Of a stretch of 64,000 nucleotides of DNA, positions 29,914 through 35,982 are shown one piece after another (the stretch's first letter is position 1; each line of letters opens with the position of its first letter). The translations under genes and the position numbers were made by a program. The notes under the pieces are model-generated. The model saw nothing but the letters and a program-made list of their open reading frames with translations, had not been told where the DNA came from and searched no databases. The DNA is from Rhabdothermincola salaria. GTDB lineage: Bacteria; Actinomycetota; Acidimicrobiia; Acidimicrobiales; Acidimicrobilacustridaceae. The stretch covers positions 372,001 to 436,000 of the forward strand of contig NZ_JAJQXW010000003.1 in assembly GCF_021246445.1 (NCBI RefSeq), in the 5' to 3' direction.

Positions 29914-31641
29914 GTGGCCGCCTCTCCCCTGCGCCGATGGCTTCCCGGCCTCACCGTCGCGGCGCGGTACCGCAGAGCCTGGCTCCGCTCGGACCTGCTC
30001 GCCGGGTTGGTGCTCACCGCACTGCTCATCCCCGCAGGCATGGGATACGCGGTCGCCGCCGGCCTGCCCCCCGAGACCGGGCTGTACGCCACCATCGTCC
30101 CGCTGCTGGCCTACGCCGTCTTCGGACCGTCACGGATCCTGGTGCTCGGACCGGACTCGTCGTTGGCTCCCCTCATCGCCGCCGCGATCGTGCCCCTCGC
30201 CGCCGCCGACGCCGACCGGGCCGTGGCGCTCGCCGGGCTCCTCGCCATCATGATGGGCGGCCTGTTGGTGCTCGGCGGCGTGCTCCGCCTGGGCTTCGTC
30301 ACCGATCTGCTCTCGAAACCCATCCGGCTCGGCTACCTCAACGGCATCGCCCTCGTCGTGGTGGTGGGCCAGATCCCGAAGCTGCTGGGGTTCTCGATCG
30401 ACGGCGACTCCTTCCTCGGGGACCTCCGGGAGCTCGCGCAGGGCGTGGCCGACGGTCTCGTCGACCCCACCGCGGTGGGCATCGGGGTGGCCTGTCTGGT
30501 CACCATCCTCGGGCTGCGGCTGGTCGACCGACGCGTGCCCGGCGTCCTCGTGGCCGTCGTGGGCGCGATCGTGGCGGTCGTCGCGTTCGGATGGAAGGAC
30601 GACGTCGCGGTCGTGGGAGCCCTGCCCGAGGGCCTGCCCACCCCGGCCCTGTCCGGCATCACGTGGAGCGACGTGGCCTCGCTGGCCGGGCCGGCGCTGG
30701 GCATCGCCCTGATCGCCTTCGCCGACACCGGGGTGCTGTCGCGCACGTTCGCCGAACGGCGGGGGGAGCACGTCGCCGGCAACGACGAGATGCGGGGGGT
30801 GGGCCTCGCCAACGTGGCGGGTGGACTGCTCGGGGGCTTCCCCGTGTCGGCATCTTCGTCGCGGACCCCCGTGGCCGACCAGGCCGGCGCCCACACCCAG
30901 CTCACCGGGATCACCGGAGCGGTGCTCATCGTGGCGTTCATCCTGGTCGCCCCCGGCCTCACCGGCTACCTCCCGTCCGCCGCCCTGGCCGCCGTGGTGA
31001 TCGTGGCCGCCAGCGCGCTGGTCGACGTGCGCTCGGTGGTGCGCCTGCTGCGTGTCGACCCGGCCGAGGGCCTGCTCTCCGTGGCGGCCTTCCTCGGTGT
31101 CGCCGTCATCGGCGTCCTCGAAGGCATCGTGGTGGCGGTGGTGCTGTCCTTCGTGGCCTTCGTGAACCAGGCCTGGCGTCCCTACCGGGCCGAGCTCGGG
31201 CGCATCCCCGAGGTGCGGGGCTACCACGACCTCGGTCGGCACCCGGAGGGCGAGCGCCTCCCGGGCATCGTGATCGTGCGTTTCGATGCACCGCTCTTCT
31301 TCGCCAACGGCGGCATGTTCGGCGACTACGTCCGTTCCGTGGTGGCCGACGCCGGGCACGAGGTCGAGACGGTGATCCTCGCCGCCGAGCCCATCACCGA
31401 CATCGACGCCACCGCGGTCGACGAGCTGGTCGATCTCGACGACCACCTGGCCGCGAGGGGGATCACGCTGATCCTCGCCGAGATGAAGGGCCCGGTGAAG
31501 GACCACCTCCGTCGCTACGGCTTGGGCGATCGCTTCGACCCGGACCGCTTCGCCCCCACGGTCGGCAGCGCCGTCGACGCCATCCTCGGCGCCGAGCGCG
31601 ACGACATCGGGAACCCGTCCGATCGAGACGACGGGAGCTGA
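29914..31641 (+). CDS. SulP family anion transporter with STAS domain
   Basis: DLLAGL..IPAGMGYA..AGLPP..GLY, SSSRT, RFDAPLFFAN, DIDAT. Confidence 0.95.
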   Translation: MAASPLRRWLPGLTVAARYRRAWLRSDLLAGLVLTALLIPAGMGYAVAAGLPPETGLYATIVPLLAYAVFGPSRILVLGPDSSLAPLIAAAIVPLAAADADRAVALAGLLAIMMGGLLVLGGVLRLGFVTDLLSKPIRLGYLNGIALVVVVGQIPKLLGFSIDGDSFLGDLRELAQGVADGLVDPTAVGIGVACLVTILGLRLVDRRVPGVLVAVVGAIVAVVAFGWKDDVAVVGALPEGLPTPALSGITWSDVASLAGPALGIALIAFADTGVLSRTFAERRGEHVAGNDEMRGVGLANVAGGLLGGFPVSASSSRTPVADQAGAHTQLTGITGAVLIVAFILVAPGLTGYLPSAALAAVVIVAASALVDVRSVVRLLRVDPAEGLLSVAAFLGVAVIGVLEGIVVAVVLSFVAFVNQAWRPYRAELGRIPEVRGYHDLGRHPEGERLPGIVIVRFDAPLFFANGGMFGDYVRSVVADAGHEVETVILAAEPITDIDATAVDELVDLDDHLAARGITLILAEMKGPVKDHLRRYGLGDRFDPDRFAPTVGSAVDAILGAERDDIGNPSDRDDGS

Positions 31642-31667
31642 TCGACCCAGGGGCCCATCGGCGGGCC

Positions 31668-31790
31668 AAAAGACGACAGGAGGGGCCCGAAGGCCCCTCC
31701 TGCGATCCGGCTGACCGATCGTGGAGCGACGCCTGGACTCGTCACTCCGTCGGTCCCCGGGACCGGTTGGCGTCGTCGTGCGACGCCGTT
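31668..31790 (-). ncRNA. Candidate ~120-nt multi-hairpin small RNA
   Basis: Own promoter copy (31798-31825), four hairpins, then C(UUCG)G terminator with U tail; no credible ORF. Confidence 0.55.
31677..31702 (-). terminator. Intrinsic terminator, 11-bp stem with UUCG loop
   Basis: Minus strand CAGGAGGGGCC-TTCG-GGCCCCTCCTG-TCGTCTTTT. Confidence 0.8.
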
Positions 31791-31797
31791 GGATGGA

Positions 31798-31825
31798 TCA
31801 TCGCCGCACCCCGCCGTCGCGATAC
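31798..31825 (-). promoter_or_regulatory. sigma28/WhiG-like promoter copy 4: GTATC-N15-GGCGATGA
   Basis: Same motif and spacing as upstream of the three LPYTG genes. Confidence 0.6.
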
Positions 31826-31868
31826 GCCCGCCCCGGAAAAATCCCGGCGAGGCGCGGCGGGCGCGAGG

Positions 31869-31901
31869 ACGACCGGAGGGCGCACCCGGCCCTCCGGTCG
31901 T
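31869..31901 (-). terminator. 13-bp stem hairpin after LPYTG gene 1
   Basis: ACGACCGGAGGGC-N7-GCCCTCCGGTCGT, 30 nt after stop. Confidence 0.7.
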
Positions 31902-31931
31902 GCTCGGTCGACGTCGGTCAGCTCAAGCGGA

Positions 31932-32834
31932 TCAGGCGTTGCGGCGACGGGCCAGCATGACCAGCAGCAGGCCACCGGCCAGCACCGAGCCGCCGGCGAC
32001 GAGGAGCCGCCCGCTCTCGGAACCGGTGTAGGGCAGGGCGCCGGTCGGGGTGACCGACTGGGTCGTGCCCAGCACCTCGGCCGCCTGCTGGTTGGCGGCG
32101 GTGGTCGGCGCGGACGATTCCGGGGTCGAGATGATGGTCGTGCCGAGCACGCTGCTGGTGGTGGTGGTGTCCTCGGTCGTCGTCGTCGGGGCCTCGGTCG
32201 TGGTGGGCTGCACCTCGGTCGTGGTGGTCGTCGGGGCCGTCGTGGTGGTGGTCGGGGCCGTCGTGGTGGTCGTCGGGGCCGTCGTGGTGGTCGTCGGGGC
32301 CGTCGTGGTGGTCGTCGGGGCCGTCGTGGTGGTCGTCGGGGCCGTCGTGGTGGTCGTCGGGGCCGTCGTGGTGGTCGTGGTGCCGGTGCCGACGCACACG
32401 TGGCTCAGCACGAACATGTTCGGCGCCTCACCCGTGTAGGTGGCCGACGAGCCCGACGCGACGAGGTCGCCGAGGGCGTAGCCATCGGGGACAGCCACGA
32501 AGACGTTGTCCTGCTGCGACCCGTTCGGGATGATCTGGGCGCCCGAGAACGCCATCACGGTGCCATCGAGGTTCAAGGTGATGGTGTCGAACGCCGCCGA
32601 GTCGTTGTTCGGCGTGAAGACGAAGTGCCAGTAGTCCTCGACCGTGCCCGGGCAGTCGCTCTCGGCACCGGCGGTGTCGTTGTGCAGCGGGATGCCGTGA
32701 GTGTCGGCGCCGGCCACCGTGGGGGTGGTGGAGGAGGTGAAGGCGAAGATCCCGAAGGTGATGAGGGCCATCGCCGCGACGATGGCGACGATGCGGGTGA
32801 TCGGGTTCTCCACAGAGAGGGGGGTGCGAATCAT
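31932..32834 (-). CDS. LPXTG (LPYTG) cell-wall-anchored surface protein 1 with Thr-rich stalk
   Basis: Signal peptide, Cys-bounded ~100-aa domain, (TTTTTAP)n, LPYTG + TM + RRR tail; AGGAG SD. Confidence 0.9.
   Translation of the reverse strand: MIRTPLSVENPITRIVAIVAAMALITFGIFAFTSSTTPTVAGADTHGIPLHNDTAGAESDCPGTVEDYWHFVFTPNNDSAAFDTITLNLDGTVMAFSGAQIIPNGSQQDNVFVAVPDGYALGDLVASGSSATYTGEAPNMFVLSHVCVGTGTTTTTTAPTTTTTAPTTTTTAPTTTTTAPTTTTTAPTTTTTAPTTTTTAPTTTTTEVQPTTTEAPTTTTEDTTTTSSVLGTTIISTPESSAPTTAANQQAAEVLGTTQSVTPTGALPYTGSESGRLLVAGGSVLAGGLLLVMLARRRNA
32218..32380. repeat. 21-bp coding tandem repeat (~7 copies, TTTTTAP)
   Basis: gtcgtggtggtcgtcggggcc repeated. Confidence 0.9.
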
Positions 32835-32880
32835 TCCAGGCTCCTGTCGGATCCGACATGTGCGGATCGTGTACGTCGAC

Positions 32881-32951
32881 GGGGCCGGTTTCGCTCTGAC
32901 TCCTCGCCCGGCCTAAGCGACCAGTTGCACCGGGCGGATCGATGTCTCCCC
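32881..32951 (-). ncRNA. c-di-GMP-II-like riboswitch, copy 1
   Basis: GGGG-AGAC-AUCGA-UCCGCCCGG..UGGUCGCUU..CCGGGCGAG-GA-GUC-AG-AGCGAAACCGG-CCCC: P1, kink-turn, P3 and UCGCU/AGCGA pseudoknot. Confidence 0.8.
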
Positions 32952-32981
32952 GACCGCCACGGTGAGTGGCGGTCACAGGGG

Positions 32982-33009
32982 CAATCGCCACCCAGCGACG
33001 TCGGGATAC
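32982..33009 (-). promoter_or_regulatory. sigma28/WhiG-like promoter copy 1: GTATC-N15-GGCGATTG
   Basis: Conserved position ~30 nt upstream of riboswitch. Confidence 0.6.
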
Positions 33010-33034
33010 GGCCTGAACCACAAAAGGAACGGAA

Positions 33035-33065
33035 ATGGGCCGTCCGGACTAGCCGGACGGCCCAT
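33035..33065 (-). terminator. Intrinsic terminator after LPYTG gene 2
   Basis: ATGGGCCGTCCGG-N5-CCGGACGGCCCAT followed by TTCCGTTCCTTTT on minus strand. Confidence 0.8.
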
Positions 33066-33118
33066 CTCGTGGATCGACCCCCCTCAGATGTGGCAGGGGT
33101 CACTGCGGTTCGTGTCGA

Positions 33119-33871
33119 TCAGGCCAAGCGACGACGGGCGAGCACCACCAGGGCGGTGCCGCCCAGGAGCACGGCCGCACCGACCGTGAGGAGCCATCCG
33201 TCGGACAGACCGGTGTAGGGCAGCTGGCCCGCCGCCGCCTGGGTCGTGCCCAACACCTCGGCGGCCTGGACCGCACCCGTGGTGGGCGAGCCCGCCGTGG
33301 TCGGGGCGCTCTCGGTGGTGGGGGTGCTGACCGTGGTGGTCCCCAGCACGCTCGTCGTGGTCGTCGCCTCGGTCGTGGTGGTGGTGGTCGTCGCCTCGGT
33401 CGTCGTGGTCGTCGACTCCGTCGTGGTGGTCGTGGTGCCGGTGCCGACGCACACGTGGCTCAGCACGAACATGTTCGGCGCCTCACCCGTGTAGGTGGCC
33501 GACGAGCCCGACGCGACGAGGTCGCCGAGGGCGTAGCCATCGGGGACAGCCACGAAGACGTTGTCCTGCTGCGACCCGTTCGGGATGATCTGGGCGCCCG
33601 AGAACACCACGGTGTCCCCGTCGAGGTTCAAGGTGATGGTGTCGAACGCCGCCGAGTCGTCGTTCGGCGTGAAGACGAAGTGCCAGTAGTCCTCGACCGT
33701 GCCCGGGCAGTCGCTCTCGGCACCGGCGGTGTCATTGTGCAACGGGATCGAGCTGCCCGCTCCAGCCGCGGCCGGCGAGACGCCGAGCGCGAGCACGCCG
33801 AGGACGAGCGCGAGAGCCGCACCGAGCGTGGCGAACATCCGCGCCGTTGGCCGAAGGTGATCGTGTGCCAT
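33119..33871 (-). CDS. LPXTG (LPYTG) surface protein 2, near-identical head domain to protein 1
   Basis: MAHDHLRP... signal peptide, shared IPLHNDTAGAESDCPG...LSHVCVGTG domain, Thr stalk, LPYTG + TM + RRR. Confidence 0.9.
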   Translation of the reverse strand: MAHDHLRPTARMFATLGAALALVLGVLALGVSPAAAGAGSSIPLHNDTAGAESDCPGTVEDYWHFVFTPNDDSAAFDTITLNLDGDTVVFSGAQIIPNGSQQDNVFVAVPDGYALGDLVASGSSATYTGEAPNMFVLSHVCVGTGTTTTTTESTTTTTEATTTTTTTEATTTTSVLGTTTVSTPTTESAPTTAGSPTTGAVQAAEVLGTTQAAAGQLPYTGLSDGWLLTVGAAVLLGGTALVVLARRRLA

Positions 33872-33918
33872 GAGGAAGCTCCTGTGGGAGTCCGGCACGA
33901 AGACCGGACGGTAGCGAA

Positions 33919-33991
33919 GGGGCCGGTTTCGCTCTGACTCCCCGCCCGGCCAGAAGCGACCAGTCACACCCGGGCGGATCCACGTCTCCCC
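33919..33991 (-). ncRNA. c-di-GMP-II-like riboswitch, copy 2
   Basis: GGGG-AGAC-GUGGA-UCCGCCCGG..UGGUCGCUU..CCGGGCGGG-GA-GUC-AG-AGCGAAACCGG-CCCC. Confidence 0.8.
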
Positions 33992-34022
33992 GTCCACCGC
34001 CAGATCGGGGTGGATGCGGTTG

Positions 34023-34050
34023 TCATCGCCACGCTGGGCGGTCGCGATAC
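34023..34050 (-). promoter_or_regulatory. sigma28/WhiG-like promoter copy 2: GTATC-N15-GGCGATGA
   Basis: Conserved motif and position. Confidence 0.6.
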
Positions 34051-34143
34051 CCCCTCGGGAAGAAAGCCGGCCAACGGTCTCGCGTCGTGTCCATCCGACC
34101 ACAAGGCGTGACCACTGCGCCGGGGGAGGGCTCCGACGCGCCT

Positions 34144-34174
34144 CGTCGGCGGAAGACCAGGTCTTCCGCCGACG
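34144..34174 (-). terminator. 14-bp stem hairpin after LPYTG gene 3
   Basis: CGTCGGCGGAAGAC-CAG-GTCTTCCGCCGACG, 12 nt after stop. Confidence 0.75.
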
Positions 34175-34186
34175 GGGGCAGTGCGC

Positions 34187-34996
34187 TCAGGTGAGCAGCC
34201 GGCGCCGGGCCAACAGCACCAGGAAGGTGCCGCCCAGCAGGACGGCGGCGGCCCCCGCAGCCAGCCATCCGGTCTCGTCGCCGGTGTAGGGCAGGGCCTC
34301 GACGGCCGGGGCCTGGGTCGCTCCCAGCACCTCGGCGCCCGCGGTGGGCGCCACCGGGGTGGTGGATCCGGGAAGGGTGGTGGTCCCGAGGACGCTGCTC
34401 GTGGTCGTCGGCTCCACCGTCGTGGTCGTCGGCTCCACCGTCGTGGTGGTCGGCTCCACCGTCGTGGTCGTCGGCTCCACCGTCGTGGTCGTCGGCTCCA
34501 CCGTCGTGGTGGTGGCGAAGGTGCCGTAGCAGGCGACGATGTTGCTGATCTGCTTGCCGTTCGCGGTGGTCAGGCCAGTGCCGCCGGTCGCCCCGGTGGC
34601 GGGGTCGTAGAGGTAGATCTGCGAGGCCCCCGTCCCGCTCTTGACGAACACGATGTTCATCGGCTGGGTGGACGACCAGTCGAAGCTCGGCGGCTCGGCG
34701 TTGTCCATGGCGGATACGGTGAACGGGCCGACCGTCGTGTCGCGAGGTGGGTCGACCTTCACCTGGGTCCAGTCGGGGACCTCGGCGAGGTAGCCCTCGG
34801 CGACGAGGATGGCCCCGAGGCTGGCGCACGTCTGGGCGCTGGTGTCCTCGACGGGAACGACGATCGGGTAGCCGACCTGGGCGCCGGCCGACGTCGTCAG
34901 GGCGACGCCACCGAACACGATGAGGGCCATGGCGGCGAAGATCGCCACCGAGCGGGCGGCGAGGCCGCCTCGATGGAGGGTGATCGTGCGGGTCAT
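34187..34996 (-). CDS. LPXTG (LPYTG) surface protein 3 with different Cys-bounded head domain
   Basis: MTRTITLHR... signal peptide, VFVKSG domain, (TTTTVEP)x5, LPYTG + TM + RRR; GAGGAGG SD. Confidence 0.9.
   Translation of the reverse strand: MTRTITLHRGGLAARSVAIFAAMALIVFGGVALTTSAGAQVGYPIVVPVEDTSAQTCASLGAILVAEGYLAEVPDWTQVKVDPPRDTTVGPFTVSAMDNAEPPSFDWSSTQPMNIVFVKSGTGASQIYLYDPATGATGGTGLTTANGKQISNIVACYGTFATTTTVEPTTTTVEPTTTTVEPTTTTVEPTTTTVEPTTTSSVLGTTTLPGSTTPVAPTAGAEVLGATQAPAVEALPYTGDETGWLAAGAAAVLLGGTFLVLLARRRLLT
34400..34515. repeat. 21-bp coding tandem repeat (x5, TTTTVEP)
   Basis: ctccaccgtcgtggtcgtcgg repeated. Confidence 0.88.
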
Positions 34997-35043
34997 GACC
35001 GCCTCCTCTCCCCTCCGACCGGTGGCCGGAGGTCCGATGGAAA

Positions 35044-35119
35044 GGGGCCGGTTTCGCCAGTGGCTCCCCACCCGGCCGCACGGCGGCCAAGGGATTTCCG
35101 GGTGGATCATCGCCTCCCC
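35044..35119 (-). ncRNA. c-di-GMP-II-like riboswitch, copy 3
   Basis: GGGG-AGGC-GAUGA-UCCACCCGG..UGGCCGCCG..CCGGGUGGG-GA-GCC-ACU-GGCGAAACCGG-CCCC; compensatory changes relative to copies 1 and 2. Confidence 0.82.
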
Positions 35120-35149
35120 GGCGACCACTCTCTGTGGTCTCCACTTGAA

Positions 35150-35178
35150 ACATCGTCCGAAGGGGTGCGCCAGGATAC
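35150..35178 (-). promoter_or_regulatory. sigma28/WhiG-like promoter copy 3: GTATC-N16-GACGATGT
   Basis: Same position relative to riboswitch as the other copies. Confidence 0.5.
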
Positions 35179-35262
35179 GGGCGGCGGCCACTGACCGTAG
35201 CGACATGTGGCACACCAGCCGGGCAGCCGGCGAGGGCGGCGGCGGTCGGCCATGCTGGCCCC

Positions 35263-35982
35263 ATGGCCGACTTCATCCCCACCCGCATCGAGATCCCCGG
35301 ACCCGACGGCACCGTGCCGGCGCTGACCGTCGAACCATCGGGAGAGGTTCGCGGAGGTGTGGTGGTGATCCAGGAGGCGTTCGGACTGACCGGGCACATC
35401 GCCCAGGTGGCGGCGGACCTGGCCGAGGCCGGCTACCGGGCGGTGGCCCCGGCGCTGTTCCACCGGTCGGGGTCGCCGGTCTTCGGCTACGACGACCTGG
35501 CCGAGCTCGGTCCCGTGATCGGCGCGATGACCGGCGACGGCATCGCCGCCGACGTCGACGCCGCCATCAGCGAGCTCGCACGGGGCGGGGTCGAGCCGGG
35601 TCGCACCGCGATCATCGGCTTCTGCATGGGCGGCTCCGTCGCCTTCGCCACCGCCGCCCGGCGACCGCTCGGCGCCGCCGTCACCTACTACGGCGGGGGC
35701 ATCGCCGAAGGTCGCTTCGGCCTGCCCTCCCTGCTCGAGATGGCCCCCGACCTCGAGACCCCGTGGCTCGGGCTCTACGGCGATCTCGATGCGCACATCC
35801 CGGTCGCCGAGGTCGAGCAGCTCCGCCACGCGGCGCAGGGCGCGGATGTGCCCACCGAGGTGGTGCGCTACCCCGACGCCGACCACGGCTTCCACTGCCG
35901 GGACCGCAGCTCGTTCCACCCGGCGTCGTCCGCCGACGCCTGGCGGCGCACCCTCGATCTCCTGACCCGACAGCTCGGCTGA
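35263..35982 (+). CDS. Dienelactone hydrolase family protein
   Basis: IQEAFG, GFCMGG nucleophile, YPDADHGF. Confidence 0.95.
   Translation: MADFIPTRIEIPGPDGTVPALTVEPSGEVRGGVVVIQEAFGLTGHIAQVAADLAEAGYRAVAPALFHRSGSPVFGYDDLAELGPVIGAMTGDGIAADVDAAISELARGGVEPGRTAIIGFCMGGSVAFATAARRPLGAAVTYYGGGIAEGRFGLPSLLEMAPDLETPWLGLYGDLDAHIPVAEVEQLRHAAQGADVPTEVVRYPDADHGFHCRDRSSFHPASSADAWRRTLDLLTRQLG

Follow-up and report, generated by a model that had tools for sequence, protein, structure and literature searches.

Class II c-di-GMP riboswitch elements precede three tandem LPXTG surface-protein genes of Rhabdothermincola salaria

Three genes for LPXTG-anchored surface proteins lie head to tail (gene 3, gene 2, gene 1) on the minus strand of the Rhabdothermincola salaria genome, at 31600-35400 of the window (the whole 64,000-nt stretch that was analysed; contig NZ_JAJQXW010000003.1, positions 372,001 to 436,000), and a 71-76-nt aptamer of the class II family of cyclic di-guanosine monophosphate (c-di-GMP) riboswitches stands 5' of each of them, in the orientation of the gene. 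It is probable that class II c-di-GMP riboswitches control these surface-protein genes, and the three elements are most likely ordinary c-di-GMP-sensing ON switches, probably acting on translation. An actinobacterial array of c-di-GMP switches before surface-protein genes had been proposed from the letters of the window alone (the sequence-only reading); at the level of sequence the proposal is supported by the aptamers, by a sortase gene, by GGDEF matches in the 3.9-Mb genome (24, of which 23 over the cut-off; completeness 97.8%) and by homologues of the proteins in Acidimicrobiaceae, Ilumatobacteraceae and Actinomycetes.

Three aptamers and the genes behind them

The aptamers are designated A (before gene 3), B (before gene 2) and C (before gene 1). 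Their GGGG...CCCC cores lie on the minus strand exactly where the sequence-only reading had placed them (Table 1), with the pattern GGGG-A-GRC-NNNGA-[P3]-UGGYCGCY-[P3']-GGA-GYC-..RGCGAAACCGG-CCCC in all three copies. Matches of all three to the models of Rfam clan CL00127 run end to end (cmscan E-values in a 4-kb region 1.2e-8, 4.1e-8 and 1.6e-6), and these matches, together with covariation in the paired regions P1, P2 and P3 and in a pseudoknot, uphold the proposed class II identity. RF03169 (c-di-GMP-II-GAG; cut-off 40) scores A at 52.4, C at 42.9 and B at 38.7 bits, and a whole-window Rfam scan at gathering thresholds returns two matches, both to this family (35036-35126 and 32875-32958). 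RF03170 (c-di-GMP-II-GCG; cut-off 47.9) scores A at 51.1 bits. RF01786 itself (c-di-GMP-II; cut-off 53.5) gives C 46.1, A 42.1 and B 40.5 bits, with genome-wide E-values of 9e-9 to 4e-7 despite the sub-cut-off scores. In the region the E-values lie between 1e-8 and 1e-6; two of the three copies pass the cut-off of RF03169, and none passes that of RF01786. The elements sit between three models of the clan.

A covariance model built in this analysis from 29 related elements (R1, from alignment A1) scores A at 67.0, B at 73.2 and C at 77.5 bits and, with filters off, finds no other site above 8 bits within 31500-35400. Low-scoring rows for mir-326, Rhodo-rpoB, Guanidine-III and sot0042 (E 1.1-7.8) also appear in the Rfam scan of the region and were taken as chance. 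A regular expression composed by hand picked up hardly any copies of the element, and coordinates plus the covariance model were used instead.

The proteins share one layout, visible in their translations: N-terminal basic residues followed by a hydrophobic stretch, a head of 110-130 residues, a threonine-rich repeat stalk, and a C-terminus with LPYTG, a hydrophobic stretch and an RRR tail (ARRR at the end). The LPXTG anchor signal (motif, hydrophobic stretch, basic tail) is thus present in all three. The tandem sortase-substrate genes recognized by the sequence-only reading are confirmed by TIGR01167 (LPXTG anchor, NCBIfam; cut-off 15.9), which all three proteins pass (gene 1 20.7, gene 2 20.0, gene 3 20.5 bits), and two of the three pass PF00746 (Gram_pos_anchor; cut-off 20; gene 1 20.3, gene 3 20.7, gene 2 18.4 bits). 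The search of the genome that it had recommended, for a sortase and further aptamer copies, found one of each: a single PF04203 match (101.4 bits, C3:326807), which among NCBIfam models is closest to class E sortase (at 143.7 bits, short of the cut-off of 160) and which passes TIGR01076 (47.7 against 39.35), and a fourth class II element (copy D; C2:580918-581001).

Genes 1 and 2 are 94% identical across 300 nt and aptamers B and C 86.7% over the aligned core; on this sequence identity, genes 1 and 2 are recent duplicates. The array as a whole would have arisen by duplication of complete leader-plus-gene units. All three stalks consist of 21-nt tandem repeats coding for TTTTAPT- or TTTVEPT-like heptads, and stalk length is probably variable. 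Beyond the window's own two sequences, the gene-1/2 head domain has 48 homologues, all of them short LPXTG-type proteins from metagenomes or metagenome-assembled genomes; where named, the sources are Acidimicrobiaceae, Ilumatobacteraceae or Actinomycetes, and many are labelled LPXTG-motif cell wall-anchored protein. The gene-3 head has 18 homologues. AlphaFold models predict an eight-strand beta domain for the gene-1/2 head (mean per-residue confidence, pLDDT, 88.1) and a beta-rich fold for the gene-3 head (pLDDT 84.7). Foldseek gives neither model a match in the Protein Data Bank (PDB) at E<=0.001; the best PDB matches of the gene-1/2 head are weak (Foldseek E 0.03; VIA-align wide Z 4.5, too low to indicate anything beyond a common beta-sandwich), and structure searches that end without a convincing match do not make either head fold new.

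Table 1. Coordinates of the array and its surroundings in the window
Feature	Position	Strand	Description
Aptamer A	35036-35126 (core GGGG..CCCC 35119-35044)	-	Leader of gene 3; pocket letters AAG
Aptamer B	33913-33998 (core 33991-33919)	-	Leader of gene 2; pocket letters AAG
Aptamer C	32875-32958 (core 32951-32881)	-	Leader of gene 1; pocket letters AAG
Gene 3	34187-34996	-	269-aa LPYTG surface protein; putative signal peptide, ~130-aa head domain, TTTVEPT repeats
Gene 2	33119-33871	-	250-aa LPYTG surface protein; paralogue of gene 1
Gene 1	31932-32834	-	300-aa LPYTG surface protein; TTTTAPT repeats
Stalk repeats, gene 3	34315-34534		5 copies in repeat table
Stalk repeats, gene 2	33295-33451		2 copies in repeat table
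Stalk repeats, gene 1	32135-32396		9 copies in repeat table
Hairpin between aptamer A and Shine-Dalgarno (SD) sequence	35012-35032	-	CCUCCGGCC/GGUCGGAGG; SD GGAGAGGAGG at about 35011-35002
Hairpin between aptamer B and SD	33890-33909	-	GUCCGG/CCGGAC; SD AGGAG 33883-33879
Hairpin between aptamer C and SD	32850-32868	-	GAUCCG/CGGAUC; SD AGGAG 32845-32841
Intrinsic-terminator-like hairpin and T-run after gene 2	33068-33032	-	16 pairs, 11 GC
Promoter-like box upstream of aptamer A	35150-35178	-	GTATCC-N-GACGATG (C3:407178)
Promoter-like box upstream of aptamer B	34023-34050	-	GTATCG-N16-CGATG (C3:406050)
Promoter-like box upstream of aptamer C	32982-33009	-	GTATCC-N16-CGATT (C3:405009)
Fourth promoter-like box, downstream of gene 1	31825-31799	-	Without aptamer and without open reading frame
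Strong terminator	31703-31676	-	~95 nt beyond fourth box
Convergent SulP-like gene	29914-31641		Gap to gene 1 side holds the fourth box and the strong terminator

Fold and ligand pocket

The compensatory changes that the sequence-only reading had described are all present, and each separates A from B and C: P2 is GGC/GCC in A and GAC/GUC in B and C, P3 is CCACCCGG/CCGGGUGG in A and CCGCCCGG/CCGGGCG(G/A) in B and C, and the pseudoknot is CGCC/GGCG in A and CGCU/AGCG in B and C. Because B and C are near-identical recent duplicates, the three changes count as a single contrast between A and the B/C pair. The fold was judged on a wider alignment (A2) of 60 elements, the yield of an aligning search of 55 sources taken from the window and 64 loci; left out of it were the window duplicates (L001-L003, L035), weak hits (L005, L025, L029), an element identical to that of L014 (L015), the sortase locus (L034) and a locus from an unpublished genome (L058). 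With the pseudoknot added by hand, 94.5% of 1256 cells in A2 are standard pairs and 16 of the 21 pairs show two-sided changes; none of 500 shuffles reaches any of five measures, and pairing falls to 30-47% when partners are slid by 1-3 columns. The nested helices were fitted by the aligning model and are hence favoured, but the pseudoknot is absent from that model and still covaries: its pair 55-86 occurs as G-C in 41 and as A-U in 18 of the 60 elements, and the pair after it is U-A in 26, C-G in 27, G-C in 3 and A-U in 1. GA (columns 26-27), AG (77-78) and A (81) are invariant in 60/60; the GA and (G)AG are, in sequence, the letters of a kink-turn-like motif. The architecture of the RF01786 family, P1-P2-P3 plus pseudoknot, thus has covariation support.

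Against this background the notion that the elements are relics or chance resemblances with no regulatory role is hardly credible. In its favour, copy B falls short of every Rfam cut-off, missing that of RF03169 by 1.3 bits, and beyond gene 1 there is a promoter-like box with no aptamer; the shortfall of B, and the failure of all three copies to reach the RF01786 gathering score, also count against a routine class II assignment. Yet no helix is broken in any copy, A and B/C differ by compensatory changes, the invariant core letters are all present, 38 of 151 sampled genomes keep the element in this position and orientation ahead of genes, R1 scores no other site in the region above 8 bits, and the structure counts contradict decay or chance.

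According to a 2026 structural paper (PMC13715770), the ligand in 3Q3Z is bonded through G-alpha to A69 and through G-beta to G73 and the A70 ribose; A70 itself intercalates, the pocket has an adenine as its ceiling and an A.G pair of P1 as its floor, and the backbone carries the stacked first pair of P2 (A14-U60). One constant offset of -1 carries these residues onto A60, A68, A69, G72 and the pair 13-59 of the RF01786 consensus, a mapping that we infer from the sequence and in which every letter has the right identity. The equivalents of A61, A69, A70 and G73 are A, A, A and G in all three window copies, with an A/G floor; by these ligand-contact letters the pocket of the three copies is canonical. 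The consensus sequences shown by cmscan are loop UGGGCAC with 3' strand GUGC-AA-CCG for RF01786, GGuCGCC with GGCGA-GA-CCG for RF03169, and GGUCGCC with GGCGA-GC-CCG for RF03170, as against loop UGGUCGC (UGGCCGC in A) and 3' strand GCGA-AA-CCG in the window. The two variants therefore have G at the first bulged position (GCGA-G-A/C-CCG) where the window copies have A; we take the names GAG and GCG to be the letters at A69, A70 and G73. The GAG marker of the variant consensus is GGCGAGACCG, all three copies read GCGAAACCG, and cmscan displays the mismatch. The pocket triple among the 60 elements of A2 is AAG in 43, ACG in 9, GAG in 3 and other in 5. As far as the letters tell, the RF03169 label on copies A and C is due to overall G+C-rich likeness, not to the distinguishing letter, and a 'GAG variant' label reached in this way despite canonical pocket letters is a caution for automatic annotation.

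The sequence-only reading had noted that the core differs from the clostridial one and had concluded that a ligand-specificity variant is possible. The difference is real but does not carry that conclusion: window GCGAAACC and clostridial GUGCAACC differ by two letters (U to C and C to A), both in pseudoknot pairs, their partners in the P3 loop are changed as well (GGGCAC to GGUCGC, A to G and G to U), and the ligand-contact letters are canonical. Relative to RF01786 the pseudoknot pairs thus go from A-U to G-C and from G-C to U-A, the second being a C.A mismatch in copy A. Since the letters are canonical at every ligand-contact position, c-di-GMP itself is most probably the ligand.

A specificity variant for another cyclic dinucleotide or related nucleotide (3'3'-cGAMP, c-di-AMP or pGpG) is improbable. 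It would draw on the facts that a variant family, RF03169, is the best Rfam label for two copies, that all three are under the RF01786 cut-off, and that two neighbours of the pocket have changed. In place of the clostridial G-C, the pseudoknot-top pair beside the pocket reads U-A in copies B and C and is a C.A mismatch in copy A, and the first P2 pair is G-C, as against A-U in the crystal; in an engineered c-di-GMP-II derivative, a change from A-U to G-C at that pair shifted cGAMP isomer selectivity (PMC13715770). Both changes speak against a wholly ordinary pocket, and a modest effect on affinity or selectivity is possible. However, the positions that distinguish RF03169 and RF03170 read AA-CCG here, as in the canonical family, the AAG pattern is common to 43 of the 60 related elements and GAG to only 3, the G-C to U-A change at the pseudoknot top is compensated, g-c is also what the consensus of RF01786 shows for the first P2 pair, and the controlled genes are classic c-di-GMP outputs. 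The pseudoknot-top pair in A2 is U-A in 49, G-C in 3, A.A in 6, C.A in 1 and G.A in 1 of 60.

Two sets of elements outside the array have less usual letters in or beside the pocket. Copy D (L004 1501-1584) has C at the position of the intercalating A, as have 9 of the 60 related elements; if any sub-type binds differently, this ACG pocket is a stronger candidate than the window copies. The elements of low-G+C members of the phylum at L053, L055, L059, L061 and L064 have A.A at the pseudoknot top beside the pocket and are followed by clean terminators overlapping P1.

Direction and level of control

The proposed mechanism is as follows. Each LPXTG gene would be transcribed with its own 5' leader, which would fold into the class II aptamer (P1, P2 with the kink-turn-like GA motif, P3 and the pseudoknot between the P3 loop and the 3' strand). 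Binding of c-di-GMP would hold the aptamer 3' strand (ACCGG-CCCC) in the pseudoknot and P1; in the unbound state this strand could pair elsewhere, and its sequence in A and C is complementary to the SD region. High c-di-GMP would then turn translation ON and give more wall-anchored protein in the sessile state. Aptamer identity, fold and association with the genes are shown; ligand, ON direction and translational level are inferences.

An ON direction is the likelier one, and translational rather than transcriptional control is slightly favoured, both mainly by relatives and by analogy. In 20 of the 60 related elements, mostly of lower G+C, a hairpin with a U-run uses the aptamer's own CCG and P1 3' strand as its 5' arm, which is the standard ON-switch layout; the terminator search finds no such U-run terminator between aptamer and SD in the window leaders. 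When the expression platform is folded alone, the 3' strand of aptamer A (ACCGGCCCCUUUCC) pairs with GGAGAGG..GG..CGGU around the hairpin (helices ACCG:CGGU, CC:GG and CCUUUCC:GGAGAGG), and that of aptamer C (CCGGCCCCGUCG) pairs with CGAC-AGG-AGCC-UGG (CC:GG, GGC:GCC, CC:GG and GUCG:CGAC); no such pairing forms in B. Compared with 300 shuffles, the strand/SD duplex has -19.4 versus -14.3 kcal/mol in A (z -1.84) and -16.4 versus -10.6 in C (z -2.01). This complementarity to the SD region in A and C makes translation ON at high c-di-GMP the likeliest output.

Several results weigh against so simple a scheme. Strand/SD complementarity above that of shuffles is absent from copy B (z -0.35) and from copy D (z +0.97), and in partition-function calculations mean SD accessibility is alike with the strand free or blocked, at 0.23/0.21 in A, 0.54/0.54 in B, 0.41/0.38 in C and 0.48/0.55 in D; folding does not establish the direction of the switch. 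Each leader has, between aptamer and SD, a hairpin without a U-run and without overlap with the aptamer, whose role is unexplained. RNA-library contigs of close relatives (90-99% alike) run from the open reading frame (ORF) into the aptamer (32650-32966, from a relative about 91% alike and spanning aptamer C, and 34990-35068), which is compatible with co-transcription but no proof of it, as the library is a metatranscriptome in which DNA is possible and contigs cannot show where a transcript starts. Folding of whole leaders with and without the aptamer constraint gave no consistent change in SD accessibility and was not used as support. At most 0.20 of the sampled words were present in sequencing runs, and no habitat is claimed.

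U-less hairpin terminators have been proposed for high-GC actinobacteria. Elements that bind c-di-GMP and yet act otherwise than as translational ON switches, whether as OFF switches or on transcription through Rho or such U-less hairpins, are a less likely though serious alternative. The stable, unexplained hairpin in each leader would suit it, as would the missing aptamer-strand/SD complementarity of copy B, whose alternative pairings can be read either way, and the unchanged accessibility in folding models. Yet the leader hairpins neither overlap the aptamers nor carry U-runs, the clear terminators in 20 of 60 relatives all have the ON layout, adhesins are by established knowledge normally raised, not lowered, by c-di-GMP, and the class II switches of Clostridioides difficile are ON switches (PMC11477304). 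An ON switch acting on translation remains our preferred reading.

Distribution, known systems and leader surroundings

The genome contains four class II elements in all, the fourth of which, copy D, stands before the gene of a surface protein with a thioester domain (PF08341, 6.8e-17). For c-di-GMP-I (RF01051) the genome, 97.8% complete, gave no match. Among relatives of the genome, RF03169 matches at E<=0.01 in 25 of 61 and over the cut-off in 19 of 61, and in a sample of the phylum R1 matches at E<=0.001 in 38 of 151 genomes, this genome (G000) being included in each count; leaving out an unpublished genome (G205) gives 37 of 150. Other genomes have tandem arrays too: G125, for example, has three matches spaced by about 2 kb, and pairs are present in G131, G134 and G153.

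For related elements we examined 51 downstream ORFs, choosing the longest one with a start no more than 300 nt away and, in one case, the first ORF instead. A Pfam family is found at E<=0.001 in 38 and none in 13. By our own classification, in which a few matches are below Pfam's cut-off, 31 of the 38 have surface or secreted-type domains: VWA with SpaA/DUF11 (6), SdrD_B/SpaA (6), camelysin-like (2) and subtilase (2), and further Big, PKD, LRR, CAP, DUF5979, DUF7507, Laminin_G_3 and Flp. The other 7 are FUR, transposase, TPR (2), GT2 and weak coiled-coil (2). The frequency of the elements in the phylum and their mostly surface or secreted targets suggest that this RNA is a main route from c-di-GMP to the cell surface there. 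At L008 and L030 (and, by eye, L017) the riboswitch stands before camelysin/TasA-like proteins with a SipW-type signal, and at L022 before an Flp pilin; such targets extend the regulon to matrix fibres and pili.

CD2831 is a collagen-binding protein. In C. difficile, class II ON switches control the sortase substrates CD2831 and CD3246, the latter a thioester-domain protein (PMC11477304). The array resembles these switches in having one aptamer per adhesin gene, LPXTG-type anchoring and an expected ON response, and copy D is, like the CD3246 switch, placed before a thioester-domain adhesin. It differs in that the clostridial switches are transcriptional, with terminators, whereas the window units come from a different phylum, stand three head to tail and encode small, uncharacterised head domains. 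With RF01786 and its structure (Lee et al. 2010; 3Q3Z) the window copies share the three helices, the pseudoknot, the GA/AG kink-turn letters, the ligand-contact letters (equivalents of A61, A69, A70 and G73, and the A.G floor), the position in a 5' leader and the control of surface structures; besides the pseudoknot changes, they differ in scoring under the cut-off (40.5-46.1 bits against 53.5), in very G+C-rich helices and in an expression platform without a terminator. With RF03169 and RF03170, the former being the best model for A and C, they share the GGUCGC/GCGA pseudoknot and high G+C but not the G at the first bulged position. The triple-tandem c-di-GMP-I riboswitch Bc3-5 of Bacillus thuringiensis likewise has three close aptamers before an adhesin-type gene, but these are reported to be three class I aptamers in one 5' untranslated region (PMC4759541); the window has three class II aptamers that each serve a separate gene, and the stretches between them hold ORFs and at least one terminator.

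Among the papers searched, none dealt with c-di-GMP-II switches in front of adhesin genes of actinobacteria, and none described this RNA as such a route in the phylum. Rfam already lists the family, together with a named variant of actinobacterial type, and the gene association is already established in C. difficile (PMC11477304). The array opens no long-standing question; it adds a clean actinobacterial (Acidimicrobiia-like) case to the Clostridioides rule of a class II switch directly before a wall-anchored adhesin gene.

The repeated cassette that the sequence-only reading had described, running from promoter to terminator, holds for aptamer, hairpin, SD and ORF in each unit, but a classical terminator ends only one cassette, that of gene 2; the hairpins behind genes 1 and 3 are GC-rich and have no T-run. 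About 55 nt ahead of each aptamer lies a common box, C(C/G)GTATC(C/G)-N16-CGAT(G/T), resembling the Mycobacterium tuberculosis SigD consensus, GTAACG-N17-CGAT. GTATC-N16-18-CGAT[GT] has 8 matches in the genome, 4 of them in this region. Other sites are C1:1439478, C1:1440396 and C1:1545244; two precede an Flp-pilin-like ORF and a TadE/G-like gene, and one box outside the region precedes an operon whose last gene, at C1:1546126-1546740, encodes an extracytoplasmic function (ECF) sigma factor. The number of matches in the genome is not above chance (permuted boxes average 10.7, and 60 of 150 reach 8 or more), so the count is no evidence, and placement alone is suggestive of an ECF-sigma regulon.

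It is conceivable, though rather doubtful, that the adhesin genes are under two-key control by an ECF-sigma-type promoter (GTATC-N16-CGAT) and a c-di-GMP translation switch, with the U-A or C.A cap tuning the affinity of each copy. If so, the promoter would be common to Flp/Tad pilus genes and the ECF-sigma-ending operon, expression would need an envelope or environmental signal plus high c-di-GMP, and copy-specific caps would provide a graded series of thresholds along the array.

The stretch 31825-31676, from the fourth box to the strong terminator, could be a remnant cassette or a small RNA. A decayed fourth aptamer at the box, suspected by eye from likeness to GGCGAUGAUCCAYCC and CAACCGGYCCC, scores 5.2 bits with R1 (E 1.6) and is not called an aptamer.

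A different signal is seen 40-90 nt upstream of the aptamers at L009, L016, L019, L020, L021, L023, L027, L006 and L004: in these relatives and copy D it is TTGTCA-like, followed after ~17 nt by GTGG-TAnnnT, and it often lies within an inverted repeat, ACCAC-N5-GTGGT. The '5' hairpin' of copy A (35139-35123; GACCAC-agaga-GTGGTC) is the same inverted repeat, and the signal may be an extended -10 promoter or an operator.

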